From: a virus
Lineage: Duplodnaviria; Heunggongvirae; Uroviricota; Caudoviricetes
Reading direction: 5' to 3' (one strand)
Length of the DNA stretch: 64,000 nt
Virus record (IMG/VR): IMGVR_UViG_3300038443_000660
Location: 2,082 to 66,081 of that record
Made by a program: the position numbers and the translations under genes. Below the pieces are notes generated by a model, which made no database searches, was not told the DNA's origin, and saw only the letters and a list, made by a program, of their open reading frames with translations. Position 1 is the stretch's first letter. Each line of letters opens with the position of its first letter. Positions 15,781-50,928 of the stretch are shown here, piece by piece.

Positions 15781-16569
15781 TTAGTTAGTGCCTATTTCAG
15801 ATTCAGCGATAATGTACTCACGAACAAATCCGCTTCTTACAATATCATCAATCGTAAATTTTACTCTATACACAGATTCCATTTTTTGCAAGATTTGTTT
15901 TAATCTAGAAAACCCGGATTGTTCTTTGTATCGTTCCGAAGTCAAGTCATCCTGAAAAGAGTCACCACAAATAATGACTTTGCAATTTTCACCAACTCTG
16001 GTCAAAACAGTATTAATTTCGGACATTGCCAAATTTTGCGCTTCATCCAAGATAATGATACAATCCCGAAATGTAGTTCCTCTAAGGAATGACGTTGGCT
16101 GAAACTCGATAACTTTTTGCTTGGTCAAAACTTCGTAAGCATCCGCCCGTCCAAATAATTCAGAACAAATCGAGATGTAGGGTGCTTCGAATACTTTTGT
16201 TTTTTCCTTTGCAGACCCCGGCATAAAGCCGATATCTCGTGAACTAACAGCGGACCTTACGATAATTAATTGTTTATATTCAGTTTTTTTGGATAAAATG
16301 GTTTTGAGTGACAGATATAATGCTAGAAATGATTTGCCGGTTCCGGGAGAACCTTCCAAGAAAAGATTGTAATCTTTCTTGTATGCATCAAATACTTTGC
16401 GCTGATTATCTGTCTTTGGTGTTACTTCATTTGGTAGGGAAAACTGTATAAATTGCGGTGTTTCTTCTCTCTTTTTTGATTTAGAACCATTCGGTCCTCG
16501 TTTGACTGTCTTTTTATATTTTTTCGTTTCTAGACTTGCTTCGTCAAAGAAATCTTGGATGCTCTGCAA
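15781..16569 (-). CDS. phoH: PhoH family ATPase
   Basis: PKTDNQ...GSPGTGKSFLA...RSAV...GFMPG...LRGTTF...ILDEAQN...TRVGENCKVIICGD..Q.D. Confidence 0.95.
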   Translation of the reverse strand: MQSIQDFFDEASLETKKYKKTVKRGPNGSKSKKREETPQFIQFSLPNEVTPKTDNQRKVFDAYKKDYNLFLEGSPGTGKSFLALYLSLKTILSKKTEYKQLIIVRSAVSSRDIGFMPGSAKEKTKVFEAPYISICSELFGRADAYEVLTKQKVIEFQPTSFLRGTTFRDCIIILDEAQNLAMSEINTVLTRVGENCKVIICGDSFQDDLTSERYKEQSGFSRLKQILQKMESVYRVKFTIDDIVRSGFVREYIIAESEIGTN

Positions 16570-25751: not shown

Positions 25752-26864
25752 TTAGCCAAATGTTAGTAGAAGGATTTGATTTTTGTTGATTCTACCAGAG
25801 TCAATTTTTCCTTCTACTGTAGACAATCTTGATATGATTTTGGGAATCTCTCGCCTAGTGCCCTTCAATATTAACGGTAACACTTCATGCGGTTTCCTTA
25901 ATGTTTTTTCGACTGATTTTGATAAGTCAACATTCAACAGCGTCGAGCCTTTGATTGAAAACTTCTTTCCATCCTCGGCAAAGTAATGACTGATTTTTCT
26001 CGTTTTGGTATTAAAAGTAAGCAACTGTGAAGCATCCAGAATCTTGGCTGGTGCAAGGCTGGTAATCGACAATGAATTATCGACCGCCTGATATTTCAAC
26101 CCTTTGATGATATTCTCGATTTTTGGTTGACGCTTCTTTCTTGGTGCCTTTGCTCTTTTTCGGTTATTAACGATGGAATCAGCACCGGAAATAAATGTAG
26201 ATACAAAATCAAGCACTTTTTTAATTTGCGGCTTGGTGTAGCACGAGTAAGCTTCCTTGATTTGGGCATCCTTGTTCTTGGTTGTAGATGCAATTTCCAA
26301 TTCTTCCTTAATTGGAGTGTAGTAGGCACTGATAATGTTCAGAGATTGCATCGACAGGCTATTGGTCTTAGCCCATGTGTCGAACTTGAATTCGGATGAA
26401 AAAGTTGCGTAGAAATTATCTAGTTGTTCGTCCAATTCCGATATAAACCACAGATTGCGATAACTGTTGGTTTTTTCCTTTACGGATTCGGCGGCTTCTG
26501 TCTGTTCAACAAAATCAACTATTTTTTGTAGATTTGTTTCGAAATATTGAACGACATGTTCAGGGAGTGAACATTTACGTTGCAACAATCTGGCAATCCA
26601 GCCAATGGTAGTAGGCACCTTATGTGATGGAGCCTTTTTGAATGACTTTAATCGAGGGTCGTTAACCGATTTAAGGTAGGATTCAACAAAGGTAATCGCT
26701 GTTTTTAAATCATTGAAATAATTGTAGTAATTGAATACTTTAATAACTTCCATTTCGGTCCTGAATGTTGATTCAGGAACCGGTTCTTTGCCCATGTATT
26801 TTTCGTATACGGCTTTAGGTGTTTTTGGCTTTACAACTTTAACTTTAGTCTTTACTGATAGCAT
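25752..26864 (-). CDS. Conserved T4-like phage protein of unknown function
   Basis: 370 aa; FNYYNYF...KILDA.QL.TFNTKTRK...KGSTL...S..KTLRKP...GRIN...ILL. Confidence 0.75.
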   Translation of the reverse strand: MLSVKTKVKVVKPKTPKAVYEKYMGKEPVPESTFRTEMEVIKVFNYYNYFNDLKTAITFVESYLKSVNDPRLKSFKKAPSHKVPTTIGWIARLLQRKCSLPEHVVQYFETNLQKIVDFVEQTEAAESVKEKTNSYRNLWFISELDEQLDNFYATFSSEFKFDTWAKTNSLSMQSLNIISAYYTPIKEELEIASTTKNKDAQIKEAYSCYTKPQIKKVLDFVSTFISGADSIVNNRKRAKAPRKKRQPKIENIIKGLKYQAVDNSLSITSLAPAKILDASQLLTFNTKTRKISHYFAEDGKKFSIKGSTLLNVDLSKSVEKTLRKPHEVLPLILKGTRREIPKIISRLSTVEGKIDSGRINKNQILLLTFG

Positions 26865-27063
26865 TAATTTGTAACGATTCTACTTGCTAAATATACCTTA
26901 AGAAGAAGTATTAATTGTTTTTAAGTGTTCTCTAATTATTTTGTTTATATACCATTCTTGTTCGACATACCAATATCCATTTCCTGAACATCTTGTTCGA
27001 AAATGCATGATTATATCATTTGTGATTTTTTCAGAAATATTATCTATATTCATTTTTGGTCCT

Positions 27064-27663
27064 ATGAAATATTGTACTTATTTGACTATTTATAGTGGAA
27101 ACAAGCTTCCACCCTTTTATATCGGTTCTACTGTAACCAGTAACGTAATCAATAAAAATTACCATGGTTCTGTAACTTCTAAAAAATATTCCGTTATATG
27201 GAAATCTGAATTAAAGAATAACCCATTAGCATTCAAAACTAAAATAATTGCTTATCATGAATCATTAGATAAGGCAAGAGAAAATGAATCAAAATTACAA
27301 AGAGCATTCAATGTAATACAAAATCCGATGTATATCAATTTGAATATTAGTGGTATTAAATTTCCAAAAAATCTTTGTGGTATAAACAATCATTTTTACG
27401 GAAAGCATCATTCAGATGAAACAAAACGCATATTGTCTATATCATCTAGAAATAGATTATTACGATCTAATCCGATGAATAATCCAGAATATAGAAAACG
27501 AGTCTCACAAGCTAAATCGTTGAATTGGATAGTTACATTTCCTGACGGAAGTAGTTCTATAGTAAATAATTTATATTCGTTTTGTAAATCTCACAATATA
27601 AATATGAGTAATTTAACTATACATGGAAAATCTAAGGGATTTTCTGTCACGAGAGTATTATAA
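27064..27663 (+). mobile_element. GIY-YIG (Seg-like) homing endonuclease with NUMOD3-like motif
   Basis: YCTYLTIY...FYIGS...YHGS...E..LQ; NHFYGKHHSDETKR; likely start ATG 27064; CTAAATA at 26887-26893. Confidence 0.82.
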
Positions 27664-30021: not shown

Positions 30022-31410
30022 TTAGATTTTGGTATTTTGCCGAACTTCGTCTAAAGTCCATGTTTTAAGAATATCGCCATTCTTAAAAACAGTCACGAGT
30101 TTGTTTTCATCATAGCCTAATGTATCTTCTGGGATTGATTTGTATCCGTCTTCATAAATGACGGCAATTCTACCAGCCTTAGACGCTTTTGATGGATCGG
30201 TTTTTGGGTTTTTGTTGATTGGTTCCCAACCATTACCAAAATCAATGGCGTTTGCCTTTTGTGCATACTTTAGTGAATCACGATTAAGCTGCTGTAACAA
30301 AGCCCCGCCCATTCCAAAGACGATATTTGAGGCAGACCAGCCATTGTTTTCATAGTTGTCTAGAATTGCATTGATTGATTCTAAACCAACACCATCACCT
30401 TGAATAATTCCAACATGAGGGTCAAGAACTTTGAAACCCTTGGAATTTTCGGTAAATCCAAATTTTTCACCAAGAATTTCAATAACTTGTAAAGTAACTT
30501 TTACCGGATCGCCGGAATCAGGACGAACCACTAGCTTTTTATTGAGACGATTTAACCTGTCGATGACTAGTTTAGACCCAAAGATGTTTCGAACAGCGTT
30601 TTCCATATCGTATGAATCGCATACGATAGAAAACATTGCACCAGACATACGAGTCATGTTGTGGTATGCTTCTGCTTCACCATTATTCTCGTGGCCCCAA
30701 GCGGTCACGGTAGAATGTTCCATAGCAGGAATAGAAAATCCTGCCATATCAGAATGGTAATATTCTCGGCCAGCGATCAATGCGGGAACGGTATCTGTGC
30801 CCATGAAGTTCGCCAAATGCGCCATGCCACCAATCTTGGCGGATTCATAAGATGATGCACCACGACAACCAAAATCGTGAAGCTTGAAACTGATTTCTGC
30901 ATCAGGATCATCAGCCGTTTTTTCCAGAAAAGTGTAAATATTTCTCTTGATTTCTCTGGAAAGAGTGGCGACGGTTGACGGATACCATACACTTCGAAGT
31001 AGCGCCGTTTCGACATATGAAGTCAACCAATGAAAACCGGGAATAGTATTCTTGATTTGAACCTGTGGAGTTCTGATAGGAATCACTGTTCCTTCTGGTA
31101 GAGCCTGAATTTCAAGAGGAAGATATCCAAGTTTTGCGACCGCTTTCCAGCCATTAACATTGAACGGCAAACCGTGTTGTTTAGCTAGTTCGAATGTATA
31201 ATCAATTTTTTCTTCTGTAATTTCTTCTTGCAACTTATGCAAGAACATTTGCAGTCCAAAATGAACTACTTCTGGTTCATATTTGAAAGGATGGGCGAAG
31301 CCTCGGCTTTCGATATATGACGAAATAAATTTCGTTTCTGGTGGATACTGTAAATAGTGTCCTAATTTATAGCTGTCACCGAACAAAATTGATTCTGAAA
31401 AATTTTGCAT
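30022..31410 (-). CDS. nadV: Nicotinamide phosphoribosyltransferase (Nampt)
   Basis: DSYKLGHYLQYP...LHDFGCRG...NFMGTDT...SIPAMEHS...VVRPDSGDP...IIQGDG...FGMGGALLQ.LNRD...KTDPSKASK.GR. Confidence 0.96.
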   Translation of the reverse strand: MQNFSESILFGDSYKLGHYLQYPPETKFISSYIESRGFAHPFKYEPEVVHFGLQMFLHKLQEEITEEKIDYTFELAKQHGLPFNVNGWKAVAKLGYLPLEIQALPEGTVIPIRTPQVQIKNTIPGFHWLTSYVETALLRSVWYPSTVATLSREIKRNIYTFLEKTADDPDAEISFKLHDFGCRGASSYESAKIGGMAHLANFMGTDTVPALIAGREYYHSDMAGFSIPAMEHSTVTAWGHENNGEAEAYHNMTRMSGAMFSIVCDSYDMENAVRNIFGSKLVIDRLNRLNKKLVVRPDSGDPVKVTLQVIEILGEKFGFTENSKGFKVLDPHVGIIQGDGVGLESINAILDNYENNGWSASNIVFGMGGALLQQLNRDSLKYAQKANAIDFGNGWEPINKNPKTDPSKASKAGRIAVIYEDGYKSIPEDTLGYDENKLVTVFKNGDILKTWTLDEVRQNTKI

Positions 31411-33181: not shown

Positions 33182-33502
33182 TCATGGGGCTATACCTGCA
33201 TCATATTCATATTCATCTTGTTCCATCACCGCTACCCAATCCAGATACTCTTGTGAAGGTTCTCCGGTAGAAACTCTATATTCTTGATAACCATTATCCC
33301 ATATAGCCAATTTTATTTCAACTGGTGTATCCATTAAAATTCTAGCTACTTGATCAAGCACCCACGCTTTATGGTGTTCACCATGAATTTGGCCGTAATG
33401 TTCAATAAAATACATCACCCATTGCCGTTTGTCAAATTCCTTGAACATTCCATCATTGTTATCTATTGGAAATTCTCCAATATAACCTTTCATCCAATAC
33501 AA
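33182..33502 (-). CDS. Hypothetical phage protein
   Basis: YGQIHGEHHKAWVLDQVARIL. Confidence 0.65.
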   Translation of the reverse strand: MYWMKGYIGEFPIDNNDGMFKEFDKRQWVMYFIEHYGQIHGEHHKAWVLDQVARILMDTPVEIKLAIWDNGYQEYRVSTGEPSQEYLDWVAVMEQDEYEYDAGIAP

Positions 33503-34110
33503 CCTTTAATGTCTTGCCAACTTAATACGTTAAATGTAAATGACAAAATATCATCATCACCCATATTATATGGTTGCGGTATCAAATAACAATTTTCAGG
33601 TTTAAACCCAACTTCGATTGCATCTTTAATATTTTTTACAGAATCCTCTATGAAAATAGAATTTTTATTCTGTTTTGATAACCATTCTTTCTTTGATGAA
33701 TGTAAAGGCAATGATACAATTTCCTGAAAAACAGGACCAAAGACATTCATCAAGTTTTCTTCTCTGGATTTCATAGCTTCGAAATCAGTAGTATACGAAG
33801 ATACAATCGTTATCTTATAACCAGCCTTATGTAGTTCCTTGATAGAATCGACTGCACCCGGAATAGGTGGAAGTTTTTTAAGCATGTATGATTGATTGAA
33901 CAATTCAGAAAGTCTAAGAGAAAATTGTTCTGTATAATACGGCGTGGCAGGAACATAGCCCGGAATTTTAATCAATTTACTCATATCATATTCGGTAGGA
34001 TCATCAGATTTCAAAAATCCAAAATTATCAATCCAATCGATGAATGTTGATCGCCAATTCAATAAACAGCCATCAACATCGCAAATGATTCTTTGTTCTT
34101 GACTGTTCAT
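33490..34110 (-). CDS. HAD-superfamily 5'(3')-nucleotidase-like phosphatase
   Basis: ICDVDGCLLNW...LPPIPGA...IVSS...FIEDSVKN. Confidence 0.8.
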   Translation of the reverse strand: MNSQEQRIICDVDGCLLNWRSTFIDWIDNFGFLKSDDPTEYDMSKLIKIPGYVPATPYYTEQFSLRLSELFNQSYMLKKLPPIPGAVDSIKELHKAGYKITIVSSYTTDFEAMKSREENLMNVFGPVFQEIVSLPLHSSKKEWLSKQNKNSIFIEDSVKNIKDAIEVGFKPENCYLIPQPYNMGDDDILSFTFNVLSWQDIKGCIG

Positions 34111-34902: not shown

Positions 34903-34978
34903 TGGTGGAGAATACCGGACTCAAACCGGTCAGGCCAAGACTTTGCAAAAGTCTTCCGGGTAACTCTGCCCATTCCCC
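34903..34978 (-). tRNA. trnA: tRNA-Ala(UGC)
   Basis: GGGGAAT/ATTCTCC with G3:U70 identity pair, A73, CCA; AGACT-TTTGCAA-AGTCT. Confidence 0.92.
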
Positions 34979-34984
34979 ATTTAG

Positions 34985-35060
34985 TGGTCCGTAGTGAAGG
35001 TTCCGCCCCTTCATTTCTGACGCCACAAGCCAGCGTGTTAACTGTTATCACTAACTACGG
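34985..35060 (-). tRNA. trnH: tRNA-His(GUG), alphaproteobacterial type (no G-1, A73), atypical T-loop
   Basis: CCGTAGT/ACTACGG, A73, CCA; CTGGC-TTGTGGC-GTCAG; T-arm GAAGG-GGCGGAA-CCTTC. Confidence 0.82.
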
Positions 35061-35112: not shown

Positions 35113-35201
35113 TGGATCGAGAGGCAGGAATCGAACCTGCGCCGAGTTAACGGATACTGGTGCCAAAGGCCAGCGGCTCTACCATCGTCGCCTACTCTCG
35201 A
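35113..35201 (-). tRNA. 89-nt tRNA with long variable arm and apparent UUG (Gln) anticodon
   Basis: TCGAGAG/CTCTCGA, U73, CCA; D-arm GGC-GACGATGGTAGA-GCC; CTGGC-CTTTGGC-ACCAG; 16-nt V region with CCG/CGG stem; GCAGG-TTCGATT-CCTGC. Confidence 0.8.
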
Positions 35202-35484: not shown

Positions 35485-35690
35485 GATATAATCACCGAAT
35501 TTCCCTTGTGACCCAATGTGGCTTCCTTCTGTAATTTCACAGAAGACACGCTAGATGTAGAATCTTTGTATTCACCATCAGCATAATGAACAGTGGCCGT
35601 CATTGGCATTTTCTTGAGCCATATGATTAGTTCATAAACAGTCATTCGTTTACTTTCTGTGTCCAGTTTTAAATGCTCTCTTGGTAGCAT
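35481..35690 (-). CDS. Hypothetical protein
   Basis: 69 aa, MTVYELIIWLKKMP. Confidence 0.55.
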   Translation of the reverse strand: MLPREHLKLDTESKRMTVYELIIWLKKMPMTATVHYADGEYKDSTSSVSSVKLQKEATLGHKGNSVIIS

Positions 35691-36120
35691 CTTTCATGTT
35701 GATAAGATGTTCCAATGTGATGTTGTTTTTCTCTGCATATGCTTCGATAGCACCAATCAAATCGGATAATTCTATCAAGGCCATAACAGGGTTGTTTTGT
35801 TCAACAGAATCCATGAATTCTTCGAATTCTTCTTGAATCTTTGACGGTTCACCAAGAATACCCTTTTGGATGATTTTCTTGTGATAGCCTTGTGACTGAT
35901 TTTCCATAGCATCGTCAATCATAGAACCAAGTTGTTTCAAATCTTCTGTGTAATTTGTTGTACCAGAACTACCCGGTTCATGTGCGCCGCAGCATTCACA
36001 AATTCCTTTAATATAGCGACCTTTACGACAGAGATAACAGAGTGTCGAGTCACATGTCGTAAAAAAAGTTGCCGGATATTCGAAGCCGGGACCACCAATT
36101 TTGTTGTTATATTTTGTCAT
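35650..36120 (-). CDS. Zn-ribbon plus MazG-like all-alpha NTP pyrophosphatase
   Basis: CYLC...CECC; KIQEEFEEF.D...Q.N.VMALIELSDLIGAIEAY. Confidence 0.7.
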   Translation of the reverse strand: MTKYNNKIGGPGFEYPATFFTTCDSTLCYLCRKGRYIKGICECCGAHEPGSSGTTNYTEDLKQLGSMIDDAMENQSQGYHKKIIQKGILGEPSKIQEEFEEFMDSVEQNNPVMALIELSDLIGAIEAYAEKNNITLEHLINMKDATKRAFKTGHRK

Positions 36121-36686
36121 AGAATTGCTCTTGAAAATCTTGGTTCCGCCAATCCAGTCCCATTAATCCATGTTACAAGCTTATTTGATCGAATTCCATA
36201 GGAACCTAATTCAATTCCATTATATTCGATGTCATATCCAATATCGGTCTGAACTTTTTTCAAAAGTTCTGTCTTTGGAACATAACGGTCAAAAAACGAC
36301 ATCGCTGTATTGATAATCTGGTGTAAATTATCCTTCACATATGCGGAATTTTTATTCCAGTTAGAAGTAAAATCAAAGAAAATCAACTCGTTTTTGAGAA
36401 AATATTTTGTATGGTACATATCAAAATCATCATTACGCATACAAGGCGTAATTGTCTGATATTTACCAGATGGAAGGAATCCTTTGTTGATTAGATAAAG
36501 AAATGACTGTTCACCAGAGCCGACAAAAACTTTCTCTTTTCCATTCTTGATTACATGATGCATATGAACTTCTGGTGGAGTGGTGATATATGCAATATCT
36601 TTTGTAACCAGCCATGGTGCTTCAATAGGAGCAAACCATTCTGAATAATAATCGACGGAATCCTGTAAGAGTTTATAGTTTATCAT
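36117..36686 (-). CDS. Stand-alone class II aminoacyl-tRNA synthetase (SerRS-like) catalytic core
   Basis: Motif1 F.PIEAPW; VGSGEQ; motif2 TPCMRND...YFLKNELI; motif3 WINGTGLAEPR; no tRNA-binding arm (189 aa). Confidence 0.75.
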   Translation of the reverse strand: MINYKLLQDSVDYYSEWFAPIEAPWLVTKDIAYITTPPEVHMHHVIKNGKEKVFVGSGEQSFLYLINKGFLPSGKYQTITPCMRNDDFDMYHTKYFLKNELIFFDFTSNWNKNSAYVKDNLHQIINTAMSFFDRYVPKTELLKKVQTDIGYDIEYNGIELGSYGIRSNKLVTWINGTGLAEPRFSRAIL

Positions 36687-47566: not shown

Positions 47567-47878
47567 TTAATCATTATTTCCAACTAATTTCCATTCTTGC
47601 TCAATCCAAGCGATTCCTCTATTTGCTGTTCCAACCAGTTTGTCAGTTTTAGCAGACCTTAATATTTCGACAGCTTTTCCGAACATGACATGATAATTTT
47701 CATCAGCCGCAGCGATCAATTCTATTTGAACTTGTCTAGGTGTTTTGGACCAATAAGTAAGTTTGGAGTTTGGTCGGGAAAAATATTCGTCAATGACTGC
47801 AATCAACAGAAATACAGATTTAGGCTGTTGATATTGTTTGCTTTTTGGGTCCATTTTATATGTTTCGCTTTCCCTCAA
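47567..47878 (-). CDS. Hypothetical protein
   Basis: 103 aa. Confidence 0.5.
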   Translation of the reverse strand: MRESETYKMDPKSKQYQQPKSVFLLIAVIDEYFSRPNSKLTYWSKTPRQVQIELIAAADENYHVMFGKAVEILRSAKTDKLVGTANRGIAWIEQEWKLVGNND

Positions 47879-48956
47879 AAAATTCGATAGCTACACCGAA
47901 ACGAGGAATGCCATCAGGTGTTTTCTGGAAATATCGAATGGTTACATCAGAATGATTGCCGATATATTTTTTCTTTTCTTGCAATAATTTTCTGGTGAAT
48001 TCTTGTGTTCCTCGAATACCAGCCGATGCTATTCGGTCATCCGGCATTCTATAATTGACAGATTTTGCATATCCCGCCCAATTTCCTTCACCTTCAATAA
48101 TATCATCGATTTCGAATTCTTCGGTAATGAATTCTTTTCGCTTAATCAAAAACTTAGAACGTTTCTTGATTTCATAGACGCCATTATATCTAATGATTTG
48201 ACCTTCATAACCGTTTTCAAGCAACCAATTATACTCTCTATCCAATTCGATTTGATTTTGTACCATGACTGTTCTGACTAGTTTTAAAACATCCGAAGGG
48301 TAAATGTTATTCACCAACCAAATGTTTCTTTGGTCAAATTCAAGCTTAGTATCCACTATGTCATAGATATGATATTGAATTTTCAAAGATTGTTCGATAT
48401 CTTGTTGAGTAGGCTTGGTTTTGCGAACACAAGACGAAATTTCGTTGAAATTATCTCTATAATCGTGGTTGTACAACTCGCCGTCCAGAATTAAATCTGG
48501 ATACAACTGAAATAACGGTAACAAAGCAACTTCGACATGTGGAACAGAAACATATTGCTGACCTTTGCGAGTGAATAATCCATCTTTGGTTGCGATACAA
48601 CGATGCCCGTCTAGCTTAGGTTGTGAATATGCCGGAAACTTGATAGGTAAAACGTCTTCATACGTTTTCGCCAGCATTGGTTCAATATATTTCTTGGTTT
48701 GAATGTCATCTATACTCGTATGATATCCACCCCGATTCAGCTTCTTTTCATACAGAGCATTTGCTTCGGCAATCGCTTGCTGTTCAGGTGTCGTCTCATT
48801 GACTTTGCCAACATTTTTGGCTTTCATCAATTTCCAACCGGATTCAACCTTCTCGCCATCAAGTAGGCCGGAAACGTTTCTGATTTTATTGCCGTCAACT
48901 TCAACCCACCAGACACGAACACCACCGTTTGTGTCCAGTTTGTATAATTCATGCAT
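47856..48956 (-). CDS. lig: ATP-dependent DNA ligase (compact type)
   Basis: PMLAK...QPKLDGHRC...LDGELY...YDIV...EGQIIR...KRSKFLIK.K. Confidence 0.93.
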   Translation of the reverse strand: MHELYKLDTNGGVRVWWVEVDGNKIRNVSGLLDGEKVESGWKLMKAKNVGKVNETTPEQQAIAEANALYEKKLNRGGYHTSIDDIQTKKYIEPMLAKTYEDVLPIKFPAYSQPKLDGHRCIATKDGLFTRKGQQYVSVPHVEVALLPLFQLYPDLILDGELYNHDYRDNFNEISSCVRKTKPTQQDIEQSLKIQYHIYDIVDTKLEFDQRNIWLVNNIYPSDVLKLVRTVMVQNQIELDREYNWLLENGYEGQIIRYNGVYEIKKRSKFLIKRKEFITEEFEIDDIIEGEGNWAGYAKSVNYRMPDDRIASAGIRGTQEFTRKLLQEKKKYIGNHSDVTIRYFQKTPDGIPRFGVAIEFFEGKRNI

Positions 48957-50034: not shown

Positions 50035-50928
50035 TTACTTTATTCCTCTATATTTAATCAACAGTTTTTCTAAATCATCCAGAACCATTTCGGTTGAAGC
50101 TTCCATCTTGATAGCATCTTGCAATGTGCCATAGTGGTGCTCTAGGCAGTTGAGTAACAACGCCTTGATTTTAGCTTCATCTGGTTTAAGTTGTAATGCA
50201 GATGACACATATAATTCTTCCAATGTCTTTTCTTTTTCAACAAAGAAATTTTCAACTTGTTCTAATGTCCACTCACCACGACGGATAGATTTCAACTGTT
50301 CACGATTCTTTTCCAAATCTAAATCATGTTCAACTAAAATTTGAATACATTCTGATATTAAACGAACTAAATGCATGGCGTATTTAGTCGAATATCCAAA
50401 TTCTTCAATATCTTTTGCTCTTTTTTCGTTAGCGTAATTTACTTTATTTCGAATTTTTGAATTTTGCATGTATGCATATCCCTTTAGGGTATGATACAAT
50501 TTTTTTGACAAAAATATCTTACGGTTTTCTCGAATCATTTCACCAATTTCAGTGGAATGAAGAATGCATCGTCTCGGAACAAACATGGAGTCGATAATGT
50601 TTGGAGAAGCATTCATCGCTAAATGAAAATATTTGATTATAGAATATACTGAAAAATCATATTCTTTACTGGAATCTGGATCGATACAATGATGTTCCTG
50701 CCAAACGCCGAAACGTTGTTTCTGATTCCCAAAGTCAGGTATTTCCCCCGCAAGATGCGGAAATGCTTCCATTTTGCGGGGGATGCAAACACCATACACA
50801 TCAATATCAGATTGGTTAGAAGCGCATCCATATGCTTCTGAACCCATCATACAAAGAAGTACGGTATTATTTATGAGCCATGTCGGTGGTGTAATAATAT
50901 TCTTTTTATGTAATTTTTCGAGTATCAA
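50035..50928 (-). CDS. Pol-beta superfamily nucleotidyltransferase (RlaP/YcgL-like)
   Basis: GSEAYG...SDIDVYGV...NASPNII...FLSK...KGYA...KYAMHLVRL...L.SIRRGE. Confidence 0.85.
   Translation of the reverse strand: MILEKLHKKNIITPPTWLINNTVLLCMMGSEAYGCASNQSDIDVYGVCIPRKMEAFPHLAGEIPDFGNQKQRFGVWQEHHCIDPDSSKEYDFSVYSIIKYFHLAMNASPNIIDSMFVPRRCILHSTEIGEMIRENRKIFLSKKLYHTLKGYAYMQNSKIRNKVNYANEKRAKDIEEFGYSTKYAMHLVRLISECIQILVEHDLDLEKNREQLKSIRRGEWTLEQVENFFVEKEKTLEELYVSSALQLKPDEAKIKALLLNCLEHHYGTLQDAIKMEASTEMVLDDLEKLLIKYRGIK

Follow-up and report, generated by a model that had tools for sequence, protein, structure and literature searches.

What could the bare catalytic core of a class II aminoacyl-tRNA synthetase do in a virus that encodes it together with a nucleotide pyrophosphatase? 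The question is raised by a soil phage with a complete 242,456-bp genome bounded by terminal repeats, to which the DNA stretch of 64,000 nucleotides analyzed here (the window) belongs. The core and pyrophosphatase genes of this 242-kb phage, together with the surrounding features, are located in the window as follows:

36117-36686, minus strand: class II aminoacyl-tRNA-synthetase-like catalytic core, SerRS-like (P0001; ORF, 189 aa)
35650-36120, minus strand: HisE/MazG-type pyrophosphatase partner gene (P0121; ORF, 156 aa)
36117-36120, minus strand: ATGA stop/start overlap of the core and partner genes (sequence)
35986-36051, minus strand: zinc ribbon CxxC-x9-CxxC, residues ~24-45 of the partner (sequence and alignment)
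35653-35895, minus strand: conserved pyrophosphatase core, residues 76-156 of the partner (alignment of viral loci)
35113-35201, minus strand: tRNA-Gln(UUG), long-arm (ARAGORN)
34985-35060, minus strand: tRNA-His(GUG) (ARAGORN)
34903-34978, minus strand: tRNA-Ala(UGC) (ARAGORN)
33490-34110, minus strand: HAD phosphatase ORF (Pfam HAD_2, 5e-7)

Both ORFs lie where an earlier note on this DNA, made from the sequence alone, had placed them, and their ATGA overlap, visible in the sequence, is compatible with their being translationally coupled. As the TAA codon of the upstream ORF abuts the ATG of the core gene, core and partner lie in a tight minus-strand operon. The three tRNAs and the HAD phosphatase that the same note had listed downstream are recovered by ARAGORN and Pfam; the tRNA trio is located 449 nt downstream of the partner gene, on the same strand. 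The window also encodes RlaP-type and Rnl1-type RNA repair proteins. A megablast search with 2.5 kb around the locus gave no match among GenBank phages, and PADLOC gave no meaningful match.

Synthetase-like core and its relatives

The motifs claimed for the 189-aa protein (TPCMR, FLKNEL, and NGTGLAEPR) are all found in its translation. Only 13 residues precede motif 1, which begins at about residue 14 and is centered around E22/P24; it is followed by an SGEQ segment (residues 57-60), motif 2 (TPCMR, residues 80-84, and FLKNEL, residues 96-101), an ELGS segment (residues 159-162), and motif 3 (NGTGLAEPR, residues 175-183). P24, R84, F96, E100, and R183 represent class II motifs 1-3, the arginines of motifs 2 and 3 among them. 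Over its full length the core matches phrog_4806 ('histidyl tRNA synthetase', E 6e-47), and its homologs form 1052 clusters of about 177-211 aa; those from unrelated phages share 27-57% identity with it. Alignment of 52 members reveals 28 invariant positions, among them the motif 1 proline and the SGEQ, PCxR, FxKxE, ExGS, and TGxAxPR segments. In an independent set of 98 unique cores from viral and MAG loci, E159, S162, and T177 are kept in every sequence, E100 and R183 in 97 each, R84 in 96, and F96 in 96-98. E59, E100, and T177 presumably correspond to the residues that hold serine in the T. thermophilus SerRS structures, while the E/S pair is taken here to represent the Mg-binding residues of SerRS.

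The predicted structure of the core (AF2 model, pLDDT 94.1, pTM 0.89) displays an antiparallel-sheet class II fold with motifs 1-3, as in SerRS. In Foldseek searches with this model, the catalytic domains of SerRS and PylRS lead (E ~1e-9). An exhaustive structural comparison (VIA) ranks human mitochondrial SerRS highest (PDB ID: 7u2a, Z 19.5, rmsd 2.5 over 181 residues; further reference structures are PDB IDs: 6blj and 1ser), followed by six more SerRS structures (Z 16.9-17.6). Also matched are HisZ and a HisRS-like subunit (Z 16.5-17.4), PylRS (Z 16.6), the Bll0957 ligase (Z 15.5), AsnA (Z 13.6-13.7), and GenX (Z 13.4). In a motif-level alignment the core carries counterparts of the SerRS-specific active-site segments (TxE, TPCFRxE, E(I/L)SS, and NGSGLAxxR): the E. 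coli SerS stretches PTAE, TPCFRSE, FDKVE, EISS, and NGSGLAVGR correspond to ASGE, TPCMRND, FLKNE, ELGS, and NGTGLAEPR in the core, with the same spacing of four residues between the glycine and arginine of motif 3. Profile search, Foldseek, VIA, and motif alignment thus agree with the earlier note in placing this class II core nearest to SerRS, devoid of the coiled-coil arm. Taken together, the PHROG matches, the 1052 clusters, the model confidence (pLDDT 94), and SerRS as top structure confirm that the observation at this locus is real and far beyond chance.

Assignment to a subclass is less straightforward. A profile search of PDB sequences with the core family places SerRS first (E 0.0015). 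Single-sequence Pfam matches of the 52 members, all below gathering thresholds, are divided between tRNA-synt_2 (33/52), tRNA-synt_2d (15/52), and tRNA-synt_2b (4/52), so that a SerRS-type assignment based on these sequences is not secure. The core misses the curated SerRS thresholds (TIGR00414; Pfam tRNA-synt_2b), and TIGR00414 serS is absent among its family-model matches.

Several differences from SerRS concern tRNA binding and size. The core comprises 189 residues, compared to ~230 aligned SerRS-core residues and 430 in the whole SerRS. Relative to E. coli SerRS, its motif 2 loop lacks 7 residues, and the stretch from E(I/L)xS to motif 3 is reduced. The N-terminal coiled-coil arm of SerRS recognizes tRNA-Ser via the long variable arm of the latter (PMC7916415); no such long helical hairpin is present in the 189-aa sequence or its model, nor does the protein contain an anticodon domain. 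Unlike SerRS, the core obligately comes with a pyrophosphatase, encoded as a neighboring gene or as part of a fusion. These observations bear on the simplest explanation, i.e., a genuine, if small, seryl-tRNA synthetase by which the phage substitutes or supplements the host enzyme, the MazG-like gene being an unrelated neighbor. It would agree with the conserved SerRS-like motifs and with the GenBank and PHROG labels (seryl- or histidyl-tRNA synthetase for the core, MazG-like for the partner); still, we regard it as highly improbable, given the missing arm, serS scores that do not exceed 17.6 bits (the TIGR00414 score of a natural core-pyrophosphatase fusion, P0163) against a cut-off of 301.65, and a pairing and fusion record that rules out an unrelated-neighbor status of the pyrophosphatase.

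Class II cores without a tRNA-binding arm are also known among paralogs of synthetases, namely the amino acid:[carrier protein] ligases of the Bll0957 type (PDB ID: 3mey), EpmA/GenX, AsnA, and HisZ, which transfer the activated amino acid to acceptors other than tRNA or act as regulators. These proteins are larger (~275-330 aa, versus 189 aa in the phage core), derive from lineages that differ from that of the core (methanogen-type SerRS, LysRS, AspRS, and HisRS), and work with partners (carrier protein, EF-P, ammonia, and HisG) of which none recurs near the core. A role as amino acid:[carrier protein] ligase is not supported: there is no recurrent third neighbor in 80 loci, and no PP-binding carrier protein was matched in the complete 242-kb phage genome. 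The features of HisZ, the regulatory subunit of ATP-PRT that works with a short HisG encoded in the same genome, are not matched either, as HisG was not found in the complete phage genome by a search whose control matched 14/14 reference genomes.

Pyrophosphatase partner and conservation of the pair

The partner consists of a low-confidence N-terminus, a zinc ribbon (CxxC-x9-CxxC, residues 29-45), a linker helix, and an all-alpha NTP pyrophosphatase domain of the HisE/MazG type. Its EExxE...ExxD motif (residues 97-120), located on adjacent helices, is the metal-binding motif of all-alpha NTP pyrophosphohydrolases, and in 94 unique domains E97, E98, and E101 are kept in 92, and E117 and D120 in all 94. 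Residues 76-156, the portion found together with the core in every phage examined, match phrog_6408 (E 9e-30), and Pfam PRA-PH (HisE) is passed marginally (22.0 bits, cut-off 21.3), while TIGR03188 scores 19.5 bits (E 8.5e-4), under its cut-off of 42.7. The AF2 model is helical over residues 57-151, with pLDDT ~63-81 in the zinc ribbon. Foldseek retrieved nothing with this model at E 0.001 or better, although HisE and MazG head its weaker matches; in VIA, HisE and MazG come out on top for the partner domain, with Z of only 5.5-6.4, which is within helical noise. Judged by Pfam PRA-PH, TIGR03188, and the leading structural matches, HisE is the closest family. The former description of the protein as a MazG-like pyrophosphatase with a Zn ribbon is supported, the ribbon being located N-terminally of the all-alpha domain.

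With HisE and short MazG proteins (PDB IDs: 1yvw, 1vmg, and 3cra) the partner shares a helical domain of ~80 residues and the EExxE...ExxD motif. Unlike them, it has its own signature (GYH, SKIxEExxE, ELSDLxGA, and TKRAF..R), in which the GYH triad, EExxE, ExxD, and TKRAF..R are nearly invariant, and always occurs together with a synthetase-like core; unlike HisE, it has no histidine-pathway context. The zinc ribbon lies outside the conserved module, and the alignment identifies it as a lineage-specific addition: its occurrence is restricted to the nearest relatives and phAPEC8-type phages (where the tblastn match spans partner residues 26-155), whereas the pyrophosphatases of other lineages carry no extension or different N-terminal ones.

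Conservation of the pairing with MazG, a test that had been set beforehand, is amply borne out. In all 80 IMG/VR loci surveyed, the core and the pyrophosphatase domain are encoded on the same strand; the core comes first, as here, in 50 loci and second in the other 30. The genes lie within 800 bp of each other in 78/80 loci, with many overlaps of 1-4 nt and two in-frame fusions. Searches of GenBank phage records with tblastn found the core in 276 and its partner domain in 268; broken down by phage name and host, the two sets are of almost the same size (Escherichia 112/112, Acinetobacter 61/59, and Caulobacter 13/13 for core/pyrophosphatase). Adjacent pairs occur in five annotated phages of unrelated groups, i.e., Justusliebigvirus PD06, Acinetobacter fHyAci03, Caulobacter CcrSC, Citromicrobium RXM, and Vibrio 2.275.O; the PD06/phi92-type genes occupy positions 26403-27223 of NC_052653.1. 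When all ORFs of six unrelated complete phages (this phage and five unrelated complete genomes) were compared by BLASTP, the core and its partner were the only proteins of this phage with matches in all five others.

Fusions are repeatedly observed. In P0163, residues 55-250 correspond to the core and residues 257-341 to the pyrophosphatase. A search of 1.84 billion representatives with this protein yielded 1847 matching proteins, of which ~58 (50% identity level, 253-303 aa) are fusions aligned over their entire length. A search for longer core homologs took in only proteins of at least 332 aa and hence under-reported the fusions, which the search of representatives mends. A 374-aa Marchewka ORF, considered as another pyrophosphatase fusion, was dismissed on the basis of BLASTP. 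Prediction of a complex between the core and the pyrophosphatase domain scored 0.00, a value that weighs neither way on binding.

The family is almost entirely viral. About 270 sequenced phages carry the module, including phages of E. coli, Acinetobacter, Caulobacter, Vibrio, and Microcystis. One genome from each of 185,579 prokaryotic species yielded 26 core loci, all of them in MAGs; 13 of the 26 are in-frame fusions and most contain the pair or a fusion. Many of the contigs may really be phage DNA. Three bacterial MAG loci in a cellular-looking context (Verrucomicrobiia, Pirellulaceae, and Bdellovibrionota) have no detectable pyrophosphatase within 6 kb of the core, which indicates that the core can exist alone. 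In two of these three, the lone core directly follows a sulfotransferase gene.

Since the adjacency survives at least one reversal of gene order and fusion has occurred repeatedly, the core and the pyrophosphatase are likely to act as one unit. Comparative genomics thereby shows the pair to be a single putative two-part enzyme specific to viruses, with its parts adjacent in either order or fused, and both parts keep their predicted catalytic residues nearly invariant. We estimate a probability of roughly 85% that the pair is an obligate, catalytically active two-part enzyme other than a normal SerRS.

Gene neighborhoods and tRNAs

No third gene accompanies the pair consistently: no family exceeds 13/80 loci, and two larger neighbor clusters in the survey are antisense shadows of the pair itself. 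The HAD phosphatase, which had been proposed as a linked gene, is not a recurrent neighbor in these 80 loci. Nucleotide-metabolism genes are frequent near the pair, e.g., Nampt (10 loci), NADAR (9), NadM-Nudix (7), and thymidylate synthase (7), and, in isolates, ribonucleotide reductase, ThyX, and dNMP kinase.

tRNA genes are located within 6 kb of the module in 25/80 loci, all but one on the same strand, and several modules are embedded in tRNA arrays. Among the complete genomes, a tRNA lies within 6 kb in 4/6, compared to 1.1 expected from random placement; the only tRNA of RXM (Trp) abuts the module. This enrichment is suggestive of a functional link, with counts that are not phylogenetically controlled, as many of the 80 loci are related. 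tRNA arrays are in any case situated in accessory-gene regions.

The tRNA neighborhood favors a tRNA-directed enzyme, in which the core would work at the CCA terminus of tRNAs from the host or the phage. In the forward direction, it would serylate acceptor ends without the usual recognition by the arm; in the backward direction, it would be an AMP- and PPi-dependent deacylase, with AMP and PPi supplied from ATP by the pyrophosphatase. Such an activity could, for instance, clear mis-serylated tRNAs or counter tRNA-targeting host defenses. A rarer variant would be a backward seryl-tRNA deacylase linked to the extra-arm tRNAs often present beside the module. The SerRS-derived character of the core agrees with this explanation, in that its conserved residues presumably are those that contact seryl-adenylate in SerRS. 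Further support might come from the zinc ribbon added in some lineages, from the two RNA repair genes in the window, and from PD06, where a YqeY-type gene directly follows the pair; the YqeY domain binds tRNA. The latter association is limited to 1/6 complete genomes: in three others the YqeY-type gene is 35-70 kb away from the pair, and in two no BLASTP match to YqeY was found. The absence of a tRNA-binding arm and an anticodon domain, the shortened motif 2 loop, and the accessory location of tRNA arrays with its uncontrolled enrichment also speak against a tRNA substrate, and we know of no role described for an NTP pyrophosphatase in tRNA charging. On balance, a tRNA-directed function is judged only slightly less likely than the scheme proposed below.

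A more specific proposal, charging of atypical tRNAs, had been put forward in the earlier note and does not hold as a general role, as fHyAci03 and RXM carry the pair and lack any atypical tRNA. For the same reason, a module generally serving long-arm tRNAs other than tRNA-Ser, an idea prompted by the adjacent tRNA-Gln, was rejected: tRNA-Ser is the single long one among the six tRNAs of fHyAci03.

Proposed function

The features described above can be accommodated, tentatively, in a scheme in which a near-minimal class II synthetase (~180 residues) and its dedicated pyrophosphatase would make an aminoacylated nucleotide by a HisG/HisE-like logic; it is the explanation we favor, but we consider it possible rather than probable. 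The core would bind ATP together with a small amino acid, probably serine, to form an aminoacyl-adenylate. The aminoacyl group might then be handed to a small nucleotide-type acceptor occupying the site of the terminal adenosine of tRNA. An acceptor of this kind is suggested by the absence of a tRNA-binding arm, the short motif 2 loop, and the lack of a carrier protein in the phage. The partner would cleave the alpha-beta bond of this acceptor, as a nucleoside triphosphate, to yield NMP and PPi, either after the modification (as HisE acts after HisG) or before it, thereby supplying the monophosphate (as MazZ does for PurZ). The outcome would be a nucleotide that carries an aminoacyl group. Solved members of both enzyme families are dimers, which makes an (alpha-beta)2 assembly of the pair plausible by analogy.

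Working analogies for such coupling are MazZ-PurZ in phages with a Z genome and HisG-HisE in histidine synthesis. Each combines an all-alpha pyrophosphatase with an ATP-dependent enzyme that modifies a nucleotide, in one of them with an amino acid. The resemblance is one of analogy and not homology; the folds of PurZ and HisG are unrelated to that of the phage core. Several points weigh against the aminoacyl-nucleotide scheme. We know of no natural class II paralog that attaches an amino acid to a free nucleotide, nor of any aminoacyl-nucleotide metabolite described from phage-infected cells. The enrichment of tRNA genes near the module favors a tRNA substrate instead, and the lone cores of three MAG loci, the weak structural matches of the partner (Z 6.4 or lower), and the insecure subclass likewise count against the scheme.

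Two other explanations assign the pyrophosphatase a different role. The core might make Ap4A or Ap4N, with the pyrophosphatase trimming or destroying the product, so that the phage would control a stress signal or RNA cap. This chemistry needs no domain beyond the core, and SerRS is reported to produce Ap4A from seryl-adenylate (title of a paper cited in PMC8821087). Making and breaking one compound in a fused polypeptide would nevertheless amount to a futile ATP-to-AMP cycle, on which the earlier suggestion of a dinucleotide signal made and destroyed by the pair founders, and the gene neighborhoods hold no pointer to it. The Ap4A hydrolases known to us are Nudix or ApaH enzymes, not all-alpha pyrophosphatases, and a dinucleoside polyphosphate enzyme is accordingly judged unlikely.

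Alternatively, the core might regulate its partner in the manner of HisZ, sensing an amino acid, ATP, or uncharged tRNA and switching a house-cleaning or alarmone-degrading pyrophosphatase. The close structural match of HisZ to the core and the HisE-like nature of the partner are in line with this explanation, as is the ability of MazG enzymes to hydrolyze aberrant NTPs and, in vitro, (p)ppGpp. The near invariance of the motif 2 and motif 3 arginines and of the E/S pair in the 98 sequences, however, favors catalysis over sensing, and the phage genome lacks HisG; regulation of the HisZ type thus seems improbable as well.

No paper on the core-pyrophosphatase pair was found in the literature searched, and we know of no other class II paralog with such a partner. 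The module stands out for its conservation in large phages that are not related to one another, with more than 1000 protein clusters, and the database label of tRNA synthetase cannot hold for the core in its ordinary sense. We know of no smaller natural core of the class II synthetase type than this one, which retains all catalytic motifs in ~180 residues, and its size bears on ideas about minimal ancestral synthetases. As several of the carriers are easily grown E. coli phages, the question of its function is directly testable. That the core is obligately linked to a nucleotide pyrophosphatase, by adjacency or fusion, suggests chemistry without a description so far in this enzyme superfamily, and the aminoacylated nucleotide, if true, would represent a kind of phage metabolite or signal of which we know no earlier example.

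Long tRNAs in the vicinity of the module

Among the 25 viral module loci that carry tRNA genes, 11 encode tRNAs of at least 84 nt with anticodons other than those of Leu, Ser, or Tyr (ARAGORN predictions, made for module-bearing loci only). These comprise Cys(GCA) at 86-88 nt, Val(UAC) at 86 nt, Gly(UCC) at 85 nt, Glu(UUC) at 84-85 nt, Pro(UGG) at 85 nt, Gln(UUG) at 89 nt, and Ile(UAU) at 93 nt. Positions of such tRNAs in the extracted loci include the following.

L077: 8329-8414
L079: 11230
L086: 12381
L090: 12381
L111: 9854 and 10407
L105: 1207 and 2707
L112: 2400
L116: 207
L066: 9894

In the inspected Cys, Val, Gly, and Ile tRNA genes, ARAGORN draws a base-paired extra arm, the loop of which contains GAU in Ile(UAU); the arm looks weaker in the Glu and Pro tRNAs. 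The complete genome of the source phage, in which long tRNAs are located both inside and outside the window, encodes further ones: Lys(UUU) of 87 nt, Ile(UAU) of 92 nt, and Ile(GAU) of 86 nt.

Accompanying genes in module-bearing phages

Several other module-bearing phages share with the source phage four genes located within the window.

15781-16569 (-), PhoH
47856-48956 (-), ATP-dependent DNA ligase
50035-50928 (-), RlaP-type RNA-repair nucleotidyltransferase, 51% identical to its counterpart in Caulobacter phage CcrSC
58385-59551 (-), T4 Rnl1-type RNA ligase

In phage PD06, the core-pyrophosphatase pair is directly followed by a YqeY-type protein of 144 aa (L001: 3589-4023), annotated as 'tRNA amidotransferase'. 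Homologs are found far from the module in CcrSC, Vibrio phage 2.275.O, and the source phage, in which the gene lies outside the window (108073-108492 of the complete genome).

A minority of the 80 viral loci carry recurrent NAD-related genes no more than 6 kb from the module: Nampt in 10, NADAR in nine, and NadM-Nudix in seven. The recurrence of such neighbors may reflect common descent of the loci rather than function. Examples include the following.

Window 30022-31410, Nampt gene, about 4.2 kb from the module
L070: 11438-12601, NAD-related gene
L068: 8807-9853, NAD-related gene
L140: 3415-3846, NAD-related gene

Stand-alone cores and records of possibly mistaken origin

Two metagenome-assembled genomes (MAGs) of the PVC group, from Verrucomicrobiia and Pirellulaceae, each carry a gene for a 181-aa protein homologous to the mini core, with no pyrophosphatase gene within 6 kb; in both, a sulfotransferase gene is located directly upstream on the same strand.

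L150: 2609-4198, sulfotransferase and stand-alone core
L151: 1686-3428, sulfotransferase and stand-alone core

A third stand-alone core, from Bdellovibrionota (L166), has an Lrp/MarR-type regulator gene on one side and a cytochrome c peroxidase gene on the other.

Three GenBank records of 146-151 kb named 'Campylobacter phage' (MG065656.1, MG065650.1, and MG065639.1) yield match statistics for the pair almost identical to those of E. coli phages with genomes of roughly 146-150 kb, and their host label may be wrong. All matches in prokaryotic genomes (L146-L171) come from MAG contigs, labeled as CPR bacteria, DPANN archaea, and similar groups, and half of these loci encode the fused core-pyrophosphatase form. 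Some of the module-bearing contigs, such as the 'Saccharibacteria' contig DJJI01000001.1 of 736,419 bp (the source of L168), may originate from mis-binned huge phages.
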